From assembly GCA_019561615.1 (NCBI GenBank), contig JAHEQA010000045.1, positions 1-35,738 on the forward strand: 35,738 nucleotides of DNA, in the 5' to 3' direction. Below, piece by piece: positions 1,302 through 5,721 of this stretch. Position numbers and translations under genes: made by a program. The stretch's first letter is position 1. Each line of letters opens with the position of its first letter. The notes under the pieces are model-generated. The model made no database searches, had not been told where the DNA came from, and saw only the letters and a list, made by a program, of their open reading frames with translations. The DNA is from Methanothermococcus sp. SCGC AD-155-E23 (GTDB lineage: Archaea; AGJL01; Methanococci; Methanococcales; Methanococcaceae).

Positions 1302-2588
1302 ATGGACATACTTGTTAAAGATCTGGACTATGCCTTAGATCCTGATCTAAGGATCTATAGGGGTATTGATATACTAATCAGGAGAGAGGATGGAGGGGTG
1401 AAACTATATAGGGGGAGAAACCTTCTGGAGAAATTTAACTTAGACAGGAGGGATTTAAAGGTAATAGATGGGGATAAGAAATGTGCAATACCTGGGTTAA
1501 GTAATAACCACACCCATATCCCTATGACCCTCCTAAGGGGGATAGCAGATGACATGATACTACAGAACTGGTTGAGGGAGAAGATATGGCCTAACGAGGA
1601 AAAACTAACAGGGGAAGATGTATATTACGGGGCGCTACTTGGATGTTTGGAGATGTTAAGGTTTGGTGTAACATCCTTCAACGACATGTATTTCTTCCCA
1701 GAGGAGATAGTCAGGGCGACTAAGGAGGTTGGTATAAAGGGGGCTATAGGTTATCCTGTAATAGACTTTGGTACCCCTCAATATAAGGACTTGGACAAAC
1801 TTCTAATTAACTGTGAAAAATTTATAAGAAGGTATATTGGGGAGGAGAGGATTAAGCCAGTTGTAGCTCCCCATGCCCCCTACACCTGCTCCAAGGATAC
1901 CTACCTCTACTGTAAAGAGGTATCTCAGGAGTACAACGTCCCCATGCACACCCATCTCTCTGAGACCAGGTATGAAGTTGTGGAGATGGAGAATAGGATG
2001 GGGATGAGACCTGTAGAGTATCTGGAGAGTATAGGGGTACTGGGGGAGAACCTTATAGCTGCCCACTGTGTATGGGTTACAAAAGAGGAGGTAAAGAAAC
2101 TTGCCAGATATGGGGTTAAGGTGGTCCACTGTCCAGGGAGCAATATGAAACTTGCCAGTGGAGGGGTTATGCCCCTTGTAGAGATGTTAAGGGAGGGTGT
2201 GCCCCTCTCCCTTGGGACAGATGGACCTGCAAGTAACAACAACCTGGATATACTGGAGGAGATGAAGATATGTTCACTACTTCACAAGGCCCATAGATGG
2301 GATCCTAGAGTTGGTGATGTGGACACTGTTTTAGGTATGGCCTTCAACAGTGAAGTCATAGGTTTCGAAAATAAGGATATAGTACTACTAGATCTTAAAA
2401 GTCCCCATCTAAGACCTGTCCACAGTATAAAGTCTAACATTGTGTACTCTGCAAATGGGAACGACGTAGATACTGTTATTGTGGATGGGGAGGTGTTACT
2501 GGAGAACAGGAAATTTACCAGGATAGATGAGAGGGATTTAAGGACCCTCTACAGTAAGATAGATAGAATAGTGGAGAAATTTGAGTGA
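1302..2588 (+). CDS. dadD: Amidohydrolase, 5'-deoxyadenosine/MTA/SAH deaminase family
   Basis: HTH metal motif (NNHTHIPMTLLRG), PHAPYTCS, HLSET, AAHCVW, SNMKLASG and LGTDGPASNNNLD. GGTGAT RBS precedes ATG1302. Confidence 0.85.
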   Translation: MDILVKDLDYALDPDLRIYRGIDILIRREDGGVKLYRGRNLLEKFNLDRRDLKVIDGDKKCAIPGLSNNHTHIPMTLLRGIADDMILQNWLREKIWPNEEKLTGEDVYYGALLGCLEMLRFGVTSFNDMYFFPEEIVRATKEVGIKGAIGYPVIDFGTPQYKDLDKLLINCEKFIRRYIGEERIKPVVAPHAPYTCSKDTYLYCKEVSQEYNVPMHTHLSETRYEVVEMENRMGMRPVEYLESIGVLGENLIAAHCVWVTKEEVKKLARYGVKVVHCPGSNMKLASGGVMPLVEMLREGVPLSLGTDGPASNNNLDILEEMKICSLLHKAHRWDPRVGDVDTVLGMAFNSEVIGFENKDIVLLDLKSPHLRPVHSIKSNIVYSANGNDVDTVIVDGEVLLENRKFTRIDERDLRTLYSKIDRIVEKFE

Positions 2589-2643
2589 AGCTCTATGTTC
2601 TTTAGAGAGGTGTTTTCTTTTTTGGTGTAACCATATTCCCTAC

Positions 2644-3543
2644 AGTGAAACCCTCACACCGTTAACCTTAGTAGTGATGGAAGTGGCACTACACCTCCCA
2701 TCCCATTTTCTTATAATGAAAAGTTGGACCCCCGGTGCGAAATCCGCACCCCCTCAAAGATTTTCCCCGGGCTTTTTCTCACCCACCTTCCCAAAATCCC
2801 AATTTCATATATATACCTGCGTCCCAGGGTATATATACCCCGTGACGCATTTCGCACCAGGGGGAAAGTATTCACTATAAGAAAAGAGGATGGAGGGTGC
2901 GAAATCCGCACTTGTGCAAGGTTTTGCCCCAGGATTATGAGGGTTAGGGGTACGCATTCCGCACCTTTTCGAAAATCTCCCCGGGACTCCTGTTCTCGGA
3001 ACTGCCGCATTTCGCACCACCTCTCTTTTTTCCTTATAATATAAATCCCATTTCTTATAGTGAAACCTCCTCTTGTACCGTTAACCTTGGTAGTGATGGA
3101 AGTGGCACTACACCTCCCATCCCATTTTCTTATAATGAAAAATTGAACCCCCGGTGCGAAATCCGCACCCCCTCAAAGATTTTCCCTGGACTTTTTCTCA
3201 TCCACCTTCCCAAAATCCCAATTTCATATATATACCTGCGTCCCAGGGTATATATACCCCAGGACGCATTCCGCACCCCCTACCCCATTTTCTTATAGTG
3301 AATACCTGAACCCCCGGTGCGAAATGCGTCACAAAATCCCTCTTAAGGTGCGGATTTCGTCCACTTCTGAAGGTCAACCTCGAGATTTTCCCGGGACTCT
3401 TCCTTGACAACTGCCGCATTTCGCACCCCCCTCCAAGACCCCACAATTTTTTCTTATAATATAAACCTCATTTCTTATAGTGAAACCTTGGACCCTGGTA
3501 GCCTCAAGGGGCGGTAGAGGTCACTATACCCTTCCTATCACAT
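2644..3543. repeat. Non-coding tandem repeat locus: two ~415-420 bp units plus a degenerate partial third
   Basis: AGTGAAACC recurs at 2644, 3059 and 3479. Block 2658-2841 matches 3077-3260 at offset 419 with 6 mismatches in 184 bp. Tails 2975-3068 and 3385-3488 are also similar. Confidence 0.95.
2734..3427. repeat. Array of ten 17-bp quasi-palindromic sites, consensus GGTGCGnAWTnCGCACC
   Basis: Copies start at 2734, 2842, 2896, 2949, 3002, 3153, 3261, 3316, 3347 and 3411. Confidence 0.9.
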
Positions 3544-3683
3544 GCCAACACTTAACTTAACCCCTAGGAATGGTGATGGGTTAAATTAAAATAATAAAAA
3601 TCCAATTTTTTGTAATAACCACCTTTTTATAACCTTATAAAAAAGTTAAAAAATATTAATAGGGATTAAACGGTGAAAATTAG

Positions 3684-4382
3684 ATGAAAGTAGATATGCA
3701 TGTTCATACCCTGAAGTCAAGCTGCTCCCTGAACCCCATAAGACTGTTGAAAAAGCTATGCTCAAAGATGGGTATACTCCCCTTTATATGTGATCACAAC
3801 ACCCTTACAAAGACAGATTTTGGAATACCTGGAGAGGAGATATCCACAGACAAAGGTGAATTTATAGGGCTATTTTTAAACGAGGCTGTAAATGACAGGG
3901 ATATCTTCGAGGCCATGGATAAGGTGAAGGAGCAGGGAGGATTGATATACCTACCTCACCCCTTTGACGAGAACAGGGGTAGGTCCCTCTGCCGATACAA
4001 CATACTTAACGACAAGGAGTTTAAAAAGAGGGTAGATATTGTAGAGGTTTTCAACAGTAGGTGTAGGGACAACAGACCTAACGAAATGGCTTATCAATAC
4101 GCCAAGATGAACAACATGTTAATGGGTGTAGGGAGTGACTCCCACTTTCCCTGGGAGTTGGGTAATGCATATCTAATACTCGAGGAGGAATTTGACAGGG
4201 ACAACCCCAAGGAATTTCTAAGGGTACTGAAAAAGAACAACAAAAATGGTTTTAAATACTACGGGAAGTTAGGGAGCCCAATTAACATGATATGTAGTAA
4301 AATCTCAAAGAAGATAAACAAATCAGGCTCCCTGAGACTCCCCAAGTTGAAGTTTAACAAAGACCTGATAAGATACCTGTGA
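3684..4382 (+). CDS. PHP-domain metal-dependent phosphoesterase (TrpH-like)
   Basis: DMHVHT, CDHN, GEEI, PHPF, EVFNSR and GSDSH motifs; GGTGA RBS. Confidence 0.88.
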
Positions 4383-4392
4383 GGAGGTTAAC

Positions 4393-5721
4393 ATGGATGT
4401 TAAAGTGGAGAGCCTAGACAACTGGAGGAGAACCCATTACACCTCTGAGATAAAGGGAGAGATGGATGGAGAGGAAGTAACAGTTATGGGATGGGTAAAC
4501 TCCATAAGGAAGTTAGGTAAGTTGATATTCATCATACTGAGAGACAGGGAGGGGATGATACAGATAGTTATTCCCAAGAAGAAGGTGCCCGAGGAGGTAT
4601 TTAGTATTGGGAAGTCCCTTGGAAGGGAGGACGTTATTGCCATTAGGGGTAAGGTGGTGGCAAACGAGAAGGCTCCCGGAGGATGTGAGATAGTACCCCT
4701 GGAGATCAAGGTATTAAACAGGGCTGAGTCCCCCCTTCCACTGGATCCCTCGGAGAAGGTACCTGCAGATCTAGATACAAGACTTGACAACAGGTTCCTA
4801 GACCTTAGGAGGCCAAAGATAACAGCAATTTTTAAATTGAGATCTGAGATGTTAAGAGCTGTAAGGGATACCTTCTACAGGGAGGGCTTTATAGAGGTCA
4901 ACACACCTAAACTTGTGGCAAGTGCCACAGAGGGAGGTACAGAGCTCTTCCCACTATCCTACTTTGAGAGGGAGGCCTTCCTAAGTCAAAGCCCCCAGCT
5001 CTATAAACAGATGTTGATGGCTGCAGGCTTTGAGAGGGTATTTGAGATAGGACCTATATTTAGGGCTGAGGAGCACAACACCAGGAGGCATCTAAACGAG
5101 GCCATATCTATAGACTGTGAGATGTCCTTTGCAGATGACAGGGATGCCATGGAGATGCTTGAGAAGGTGGTGTATAATACCCTCCTACATATAAAGGAGC
5201 ACTGTAAGAGGGAGTTGGAGTTACTAGATGTAGACCTTAAGATACAGGATATCCCATTCCCAAGGCTGACATACGATGAAGTTTTAGATATTGTAAACAC
5301 CAGAGGTGTGGAGATGGAGTGGGGAGAGGACCTCTCAAGGGCTGGGGAGAAGGTGTTGGGGGATTACATGGAGGGGTTCTACTTTATTACCAAGTGGCCC
5401 AGGGATATAAGACCCTTCTACACCCTTCCATGTGAGGAGGATCCAAAACTCTGTAAGGCCTTTGACCTTATGTATAAAGATCTGGAGATTGCCTCAGGTG
5501 CCCAGAGGATCCACATATACCCCCTTCTAGTGGAGAATATTAAAAGGATGGGTTTAAACCCTGAGAGTTTCGAGAGCTACCTCCAGGCCTTTAGATACGG
5601 GATGCCACCTCATGCAGGCTGGGGTCTAGGTGCAGATAGGTTTATGATGGTGTTGGGAGGCCAGAAGAATATTAGGGAGTGTGTCCTCTTCCCAAGGGAT
5701 AGACATAGACTTACACCTTAA
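4393..5721 (+). CDS. aspS: Aspartate--tRNA ligase, archaeal type (probably non-discriminating Asp/Asn)
   Basis: OB-fold (GWVxxIRxLG, ILRDR), [32 protein letters not shown] and [14 protein letters not shown]; GAGGAGG RBS. Confidence 0.97.

Follow-up and report, generated by a model that had tools for sequence, protein, structure and literature searches.

A Mosaic Repeat Family Carrying Candidate Ptr2-Type Operator Sites at Gene Ends in Methanothermococcus

The 35,738-base window analyzed here (contig JAHEQA010000045.1 of Methanothermococcus sp. SCGC AD-155-E23, assembly GCA_019561615.1) contains, at positions 2734–3427, ten 17-bp palindromic sites that an earlier note on this DNA had singled out as possible targets of a dimeric protein. 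These palindromes, termed B boxes in what follows, are modules of an interspersed, non-coding mosaic repeat of about 364 bp. [quoted passage not shown] The B boxes are most likely binding sites of the genome's only regulator of the Lrp/AsnC family (feast/famine regulatory proteins, FFRPs), a Ptr2 orthologue, because they have the form of FFRP sites and copy a conserved two-site operator of the fprA gene that stands beside the regulator gene. This mosaic repeat family of a narrow methanogen lineage is undescribed as far as the open-access literature goes, in which neither the present family nor any such family in Archaea was found.

The Palindromes Are Modules of an Interspersed Mosaic Repeat

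The ten 17-mers stand at the coordinates and have the letters given in the earlier note, all ten share the CG-n-AWT-n-CG core that it described, and its center-to-center spacings (108, 54, 53, 53, 151, 108, 55, 31, and 64 bp) are exact. Scanned with the pattern CGNAWTNCGCACC and at most one mismatch, the window yields 14 strand matches, all at the ten sites and none elsewhere in its 35,738 bases, against a chance expectation of 0.08 derived from 100 shuffles, not one of which reaches 14. Only the boxes starting at 2734, 2896, and 3153 are near-perfect self-complements, the others keeping one half and the center. The ten sites are not independent, but two sets of five, because the array consists of two tandem copies of one repeat element; positions 2658–2858 and 3077–3277 form a direct repeat, 96% identical, with a period of 419.

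The array lies in a 1,095-bp intergenic gap (2589–3683) between an amidohydrolase gene and a PHP-domain gene, starting 24 bases past the amidohydrolase stop codon. The parent assembly, here designated G000 (with the window as its contig C45), is a metagenome bin with a completeness of 86%, and its 1,043,924 bases are divided among 51 contigs, which are interrupted at repeats. A BLAST search of the gap against this assembly recovered six full copies of the element that are 95–98% identical, two variant copies, and three partial copies at contig ends (C9, C13, and C23). The commonest form, variant 1, spans 364 bp at 3125–3488 of the window (plus strand), as delimited by alignment and by loose contig ends of an independent public run at 3488, and is 95–98% identical to the copies at C4:82288–82651 (minus strand), C17:15763–16125 (plus), C29:15247–15609 (minus), C36:88685–89047 (plus), and C47:6826–7189 (plus). 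The copy that precedes it in the window, variant 2 (2706–3068, plus strand, 363 bp), was delimited by an eight-copy alignment with flanks, by nhmmer, and by a loose contig end of the independent run at 2706; it shares its first ~150 and last ~60 bp with variant 1 and has an inverted A-B module as its center. The two are separated by a 56-bp spacer (3069–3124, plus strand), which recurs within the tandem pair of contig C29. An optional left extension, defined by repeat search, BLAST, and alignment, occupies 2658–2705 (plus strand) and again 3077–3124, where the independent run has a loose contig end at 3085, and it also precedes the element copies on C29 and C9. Upstream of it, repeat search identified a degenerate remnant of the element right end, an A′-A module at 2612–2653 (plus strand) that is 62% like 3027–3068.

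The ends of the element are sharp. When eight copies are aligned with 150-bp flanks, identity begins at TTTTCTTATAATG and ceases after TTTCTTATAGTGAAACCT, and in the independent run positions 2706 and 3488 are the exact points where contigs stop or fork, to continue into the flanks of other copies. In that run, contigs made of element pieces reach a depth near 5,500 against 362 for flanking sequence, a ratio of about 15 that is not a copy number. Throughout G000, the exact 13-mer box pattern has 57 matches (28 forward and 29 reverse) on 9 of the 51 contigs, against none for the same pattern written backwards, and elements making up 0.39% of the genome hold 48 of the 62 CGnWWWnCG sites present in its 1.04 Mb. 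CpG motifs are very scarce in this genome, with just 14 CGnWWWnCG sites outside repeats. Self-BLAST of G000 detected no other interspersed repeat or insertion sequence, the remaining duplicated stretches being ordinary genes. Some of these form kilobase-scale duplicates on separate contigs (C11 and C25:1–2597; C41 and C32:26938–31092; C16 and C35), which probably reflect assembly redundancy or strain mixture and not true repeats.

The element is a mosaic of four module types in both orientations: A boxes, located at both ends and mid-element, five B boxes per copy, a 30-bp TATA palindrome, and X boxes. Each stretch between boxes carries either a TATA-like box or an X box. The A box TTTCTTATARTGAA, which marks the left element end at 2707–2720 (plus strand), is a TTTC-N7-GAAA near-palindrome with a TATA-like center; pattern matches place further A boxes at 2871–2884 (minus strand), 3051–3064, 3126–3139, 3289–3302, and 3471–3484, and 28 of the 29 A-box matches in the genome (at most one mismatch) lie within elements. 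The TATA palindrome, TATATATACC-N10-GGTATATATA, was located by repeat search at 2808–2837, with a second copy at 3227–3256. The X box, AGATTTTCCCnGGnCT…, stands at 3177–3198 (plus strand) and also at 2758–2779 and 3383–3404, and is recognizable in three related genomes (G005, G009, and G011). This presence of modules in either orientation allows nested long-range pairing over the full length of the element, and the predicted fold of the 364-nt element RNA, with nested pairing of B boxes, is far better than that of shuffled sequences (z = −7.4 for the plus strand and z = −5.7 for the minus strand).

The dispersal of the element bears directly on two readings offered by the earlier note, in which the array was likened to parS sites or iterons and to recombinase core sites. 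As iterons of a replication origin, or as a parS-like array of the chromosome or of an integrated plasmid, the boxes would be expected at a single locus beside rep/orc or parAB genes. Regularly spaced palindromes with AT-rich boxes between them do recall such arrays, and this methanogen order is not known to have a clear Orc1/Cdc6 or a mapped origin. Near-identical arrays are nevertheless found at at least nine dispersed loci behind unrelated genes, and in the window, where the neighbors are amidohydrolase and PHP genes, no replication (rep, orc), partition (par), or recombinase gene adjoins the array, although no search was aimed at ParB. Nine of the 13 genomes of the genus, moreover, yielded no member of the family, and plasmid and phage collections searched in distant mode gave no match. 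We regard an origin or partition array as most improbable, and the recombinase-core reading is not supported either, with neither a tyrosine recombinase nor a Y1 transposase found in the 86%-complete assembly. A CRISPR array, with identical repeats and unique spacers, does not fit: the would-be spacers are conserved among copies and the boxes occur in both orientations.

The proposal that the boxes are arrayed on one face of the DNA helix holds only in part. Phasing is poor at 10.5 bp (Rayleigh R = 0.47) and is best, within the range of 10–11.5 bp, at 10.8 bp (R = 0.79), a value equalled by about 1% of 2000 random placements. A period of 10.8 bp is, however, the fifth harmonic (54/5) of a 53–56-bp sub-repeat lattice, for which R = 0.81 at 51.9 bp with all ten sites and R = 1.00 at 53.6 bp with the first five. 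Further periodogram peaks appear at other harmonics (8.9, 13.6, and 18 bp), and helical phasing is therefore inseparable from a tandem-unit origin. The arrays of G005 (B-box center spacings of 87, 56, 53, 55, and 53 bp) and G011 (105, 162, 164, 55, 53 bp, and so on) display the same ~54-bp lattice, a best helical-range period of 10.7–10.9 bp, and poor phasing at 10.5 bp across arrays (R = 0.18–0.62), but they share ancestry with the window array and are not independent tests of phasing. The regular spacing of the boxes is real, and much of it derives from the ~54-bp sub-repeat lattice.

The B Boxes Share the Motif of a Conserved fprA Operator

According to Yokoyama et al. [quoted passage not shown] All ten window boxes take this 5-3-5 form as CG-n-WWW-n-CG, their CG-N5-CG frame corresponding to bases c and d of the FFRP site, and one box of G011, GGTACGAAATTCGTACC, contains the TvFL3 optimum at 13 of 13 positions. 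In each of six genomes examined, the Lrp/AsnC domain (PF01037) has exactly one match, and tblastn detected no second FFRP in G000. The single G000 gene (C46:29579–29998) encodes a 140-aa Ptr2-like protein whose six contact residues (Tyr, Ser, Glu, Ser, Ser, and Arg) are those that Table 4 of PMC2715240 assigns to Ptr2, and which is 75% identical to the NCBI-named Ptr2 of a Methanocaldococcus genome, in which the same contact residues are found.

In all six genomes, fprA and hemerythrin genes are located 1.2–2.5 kb from the FFRP gene, and in G000 (C46:27640–29998) the fprA (flavodiiron) and hemerythrin genes are convergent with it. One of the 14 CG-type sites outside the G000 elements lies in this region, 1.9 kb from the FFRP gene and directly upstream of the fprA-hemerythrin TATA region. 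Every one of the 13 genomes of the genus keeps this site directly ahead of the B recognition element (BRE) and TATA box gttaaattaatata, while seven genomes, all of them without the repeat, have an additional site 30–32 bp further up. Such a layout agrees with that of Ptr2-type activators, described in PMC2995911 as two-site and promoter-proximal, with phased Lrp sites and with a dimer site for activation that precedes the BRE by a few bp. From gene neighborhood and motif form we infer that the FFRP uses the fprA operator, and the fprA-hemerythrin oxygen-defence locus provides a genus-wide operator model that can be tested.

A position weight matrix was built from the 13 fprA-upstream sites of the seven genomes that lack the repeat and applied with a cut-off of 8 bits. 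Over G000 it marks 34 places, 30 of which are in elements, with the native fprA site ranking third, and it marks six of the ten window boxes, a number reached by none of 500 column-shuffled matrices (mean 0.06, maximum 4). The best box is the ninth (3347–3363), read on the minus strand as TGGACGAAATCCGCACC, which scores 16.8 bits and whose left half, GGACGA, is the published Ptr2 consensus half-site. It is followed by box 1 (GGTGCGAAATCCGCACC, 2734–2750) and box 6 (3153–3169), with 13.5 bits each, box 3 (2896–2912, 12.2 bits), and boxes 2 (2842–2858) and 8 (3316–3332), with 9.1 bits each; box 8 lies 31 bp from box 9, center to center, to be compared with the 30–32 bp of the native pair. Weak scores are obtained for box 4 (2949–2965, 5.4 bits), for box 7 (3261–3277, 4.6 bits), which is 4 bp from the TATA palindrome, and for boxes 5 (3002–3018) and 10 (3411–3427), with 4.2 bits each. 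The boxes and the native operator thus have one motif in common, and what the earlier note had said of operator-like sites for a dimeric protein is indirectly supported by the 5-3-5 form of the boxes and by their place among the best genome matches to a matrix derived from non-carriers.

Beyond the palindrome itself, with C and G at bases c and d and an AAT/ATT center, the elements share with the Ptr2 sites of Methanocaldococcus jannaschii and with the native fprA operator the GGACGA half-site, a pair of sites 30–32 bp apart, and a TATA box close by. They differ in having five candidate sites per 364 bp, in recurring at many loci, where they follow genes instead of preceding them, in that most neighboring boxes are 53–56 bp apart and not two or three helical turns, and in the position of their TATA-like boxes, whose distance exceeds that of the native promoter by about one turn.

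Several observations weigh against the assignment of the boxes to the Ptr2-like protein. Four window boxes score just 4.2–5.4 bits, and the 34 places marked genome-wide compare with a mean of 78 for column-shuffled matrices, because CpG is scarce in G000; shuffled matrices that break up the CpGs match 2–3 times oftener than the true matrix. The signal of the matrix is the location of its matches, not their number. The published contact rule by which Thr at position 36 predicts T at base b (PMC2715240) is not followed in G011, where Thr accompanies A, while Ser accompanies G in G000; the joint change of residue and base is real, but it departs from the rule and was not counted as support. [quoted passage not shown] The expectation of the earlier note that genuine sites should decay more slowly than the spacers met a mixed outcome in the six full G000 copies: B boxes vary as much as the rest of the element (6 of 85 and 23 of 279 columns, respectively; p = 0.82), yet all six variable columns fall outside the CG/AWT core. 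Better kept than the B boxes are the A boxes, with 1 variable column of 68, and the TATA palindrome (0 of 31). Finally, in an incomplete bin the assembler may have partly averaged the interiors of the repeat, and no transposase or recombinase partner of the element was found.

If the boxes are indeed Ptr2-type sites, the Ptr2-like protein would bind them as dimers, which may assemble into higher oligomers, and the arrays would be a sink for the regulator, gene-end roadblocks, or additional promoters dependent on Ptr2, the last being proposed because TATA-like boxes lie between B boxes. Most high-scoring sites for the regulator would then reside in repeats and not in promoters, with a bearing on regulator dosage, on the ends of transcription units, and on the tolerance of repeats in small archaeal genomes. 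A bolder proposal, which we hold to be rather unlikely, is that the elements have been domesticated as genome-wide docking arrays for the lone Lrp-type regulator, serving as roadblock terminators or insulators, or as a buffer of its free level. Predicted repeat-borne sites outnumber the native operator about 30 to 1. Under this proposal docking arrays would be held at fixed gene-end positions in streamlined genomes of 1.0–1.2 Mb, and, as a buffer, they would set the free level of a regulator of oxygen-defence genes (fprA-hemerythrin). Bacterial interspersed repeats that contain host-factor sites are familiar, IHF-site BIMEs being an example, as are the transcription-factor sites that transposons carry in eukaryotes; the present repeats, if they do act as docking arrays, would be the first archaeal family to rewire or buffer a transcription-factor network in the manner of the latter.

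Distribution and History of the Family

The A-B module pattern was found in four of 40 genomes of the order, all among the 13 of the window's genus (G000, G005, G009, and G011), and was not found in 17 sister-family genomes; weak 25-nt DNA matches in two of these (G029 and G037; E about 1e-4) were set aside, as they covered nothing but the AT-rich A′ box. Across about 185,000 species genomes, a scan returned 12 stretches, three of them from two records labelled Methanothermococcus okinawensis (metagenome bins) and the remaining nine being single chance matches in unrelated bacteria, with no cluster of boxes. The corresponding metagenome scan returned 15 stretches, of which just one, a true 1.5-kb contig, has a cluster of six B and four A boxes. 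Within the genus, G011 has 46 boxes at about 15 loci, G009 seven loci, and G005 two decaying loci, with one lone match in G004 and none in G001.

Orthologous sites are filled in some genomes and empty in others. Among the 12 genomes with an orthologue of the window locus, it is filled in two (G000 and G009), the spacers of the others being short or AT-rich and devoid of the motifs. A short AT-rich spacer connects the amidohydrolase gene with the PHP gene in seven species, and the AT-rich upstream region of the latter (about 3580–3683) is kept in relatives with empty sites. The nrdD locus is filled in 3 of 13 genomes (G000, G009, and G011), with an identical right boundary in G000 and G011, and the same flanks enclose a 364-bp version in the former and about 190 bp in the latter. 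The C17 and C29 loci are filled also in G009, and the C29 locus in G011 as well, while both are empty in G001, G004, G005, and G008. With the pyrI locus left out of the G000 count, its gene being cut by a contig end, six G000 loci can be judged; because five of them are also filled in G009, the insertions must be older than these species, and there is little sign of recent movement. In a further genome (G006 C1, about 868,500–870,600; locus L059), a ~115-bp unit that includes the last nrdD codons is repeated at least five times head to tail behind nrdD.

Despite the age of the insertions, copies resemble one another by genome and not by locus. When the first 82 nt are compared, G000 copies have a mean identity of 0.94 (28 pairs), the same value as among G009 copies, whereas orthologous pairs of G000 and G009 reach 0.86 and 0.78, not above the 0.70–0.90 of non-orthologous cross-species pairs. 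This pattern indicates concerted evolution, or repeated replacement, of copies within genomes. The repeat entered its loci before the present species split, and copies have since been homogenised within each genome, most simply via gene conversion. For dispersed non-coding repeats in a lineage that is polyploid, the family offers a clear-cut example of concerted evolution.

Position Relative to Genes and Likeness to Known Repeats

Elements are preferentially located behind genes. The gene ends facing the 28 clusters of the four carrier genomes comprise 26 3′ ends and 10 5′ ends (24 and 10 after removal of two duplicate loci), and no cluster is flanked by gene starts on both sides among the eight for which the two flanks are known. 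There is no gap (0 nt) between stop codon and element at C17, at C29, and at the pyrI locus of G011, and at most other loci the element begins within about 35 nt. At the C29 locus, the last residues of the encoded protein differ among species exactly at the element start. On contig C4, 16 bp (82651–82668) separate the left end of an element from the ATG of the next gene, whose product begins MKIGVVSESRD, and this gene may depend for its transcription on the element A box or on read-through; in G009 about 65 bp upstream of the same gene are kept, with a TATA-like box of their own.

The 3′-end bias, the abutment on stop codons, and the strong predicted fold with its nested pairing of B boxes could also speak for a structure acting as a single strand, as in repetitive extragenic palindromic (REP) elements or BIMEs, in which hairpins in 3′ untranslated RNA or single-stranded DNA would stabilise or terminate transcripts and no sequence-specific protein would be involved. 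T-runs on both strands and the joint change of both palindrome arms in G011 (GGTACG..CGTACC instead of GGTGCG..CGCACC) fit this explanation, which we nonetheless judge distinctly improbable. The six boxes of G005 stand in a single orientation, with no inverted partner; near-perfect self-complementarity is confined, as noted above, to three of the ten window boxes; the elements contain no Rfam match at the gathering threshold, the sole weaker match falling outside them; and neither the GTAG tag nor a REP-associated tyrosine transposase (RAYT) gene accompanies the boxes. Hairpins alone would not recreate the motif of the native operator.

In other respects the family resembles the REP elements and BIMEs of enterobacteria, with the general REP features as given in PMC3733652. 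The two kinds of repeat have an interspersed, extragenic distribution, chiefly downstream of coding regions where genes converge or run in one direction, and they are high-copy mosaics of short imperfect palindromic units in alternating orientation, with conserved linkers and with single as well as tandem forms. Both also carry sites for host DNA-binding proteins, putative in the present family. The GTAG/CGTC tag of REP elements is replaced ahead of the boxes by bases such as CCCC, GGAG, or TAGG, and the Y1 transposase of RAYT genes (PF01797) was found in none of the four carriers, of which G000 is 86% complete. The present family is, in addition, archaeal, and its unit, which is unrelated in sequence, corresponds to the operator of a transcription factor and takes turns with TATA-like boxes along the ~54-bp lattice.

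Archaeal MITEs, such as the SM elements of Sulfolobus and the haloarchaeal PATEs listed in a review (PMC10969869), are likewise short, non-coding, and multi-copy, with sharp ends and with filled and empty orthologous sites. The same features would be expected if the element were a selfish miniature transposon in which A and B boxes were subterminal sites of a lost or unidentified transposase or recombinase and the likeness to the Ptr2 operator were coincidental or irrelevant. The terminal A boxes are indeed its least variable boxes (1 of 68 columns), a gene 3′-end fragment travels with the copies at C36 and at G011 C14, and assemblies break at the element, so that an autonomous copy could have gone unassembled. 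Unlike MITEs, however, the element has direct A boxes at its ends, inverted modules being internal only, and the six full copies with flanks show neither terminal inverted repeats nor a target-site duplication. No parent insertion sequence with matching ends was found in the incomplete assembly, and PF01797 was found in none of the four carrier genomes, three of which are 96–99% complete. The only TnpB-like (PF07282) trace in G000, at C4:6152–6301, is a 51-aa frame interrupted by a TGA stop codon, apparently a dead fragment, and has no matching ends. Searches for tyrosine recombinases likewise gave no match, and the occupied loci are old and shared among species. Coincidence would, furthermore, leave unexplained why 30 of the 34 best matches to the operator matrix fall in elements, and we consider a purely selfish transposon unlikely.

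The gene fragment in question, gagaggttaagtaggttgttg…, is present at C36:88545–88627 and in G011 (C14; locus L063, 1330–1520), alongside element copies, and is identical to the 3′ end of the C29-locus gene; in G011 it forms a tandem duplicate with a period of 96 bp. A further group of palindromic repetitive elements, MJRE1–3 (Suyama, Lathe and Bork 2005), reportedly occurs in M. jannaschii, a methanogen of the same order. The present family likewise consists of palindromic repeats, and its A-B module pattern was not found in the 17 sister-family genomes searched.

Gene Neighborhood and Other Features of the Window

The genes that border the array are both on the plus strand. Upstream, the open reading frame at 1239–2588 encodes a 449-aa protein of the amidohydrolase family (PF01979, E 1.5e-56), and downstream the PHP-domain gene (PF13263) occupies 3684–4382. 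ARAGORN detected no tRNA in the window and no Rfam family was matched at the gathering threshold over its whole length; a search of 2550–3700 by E-value gave a single chance match to an animal microRNA family (E 0.5). Of the public runs listed as containing 2400–4400, none is recorded as RNA, and the contigs of one metatranscriptome (X13) gave no match to this stretch, neither outcome bearing on its expression. The contig begins with a run of C of ~97 nt (1–97, 95% purity), which is probably an assembly or sequencing artefact of the contig end. Next to it, positions 114–1037 encode a 307-aa protein with an HMD C-terminal domain and a weak match to the N-terminal domain, which may be an Hmd paralogue and not a dehydrogenase.

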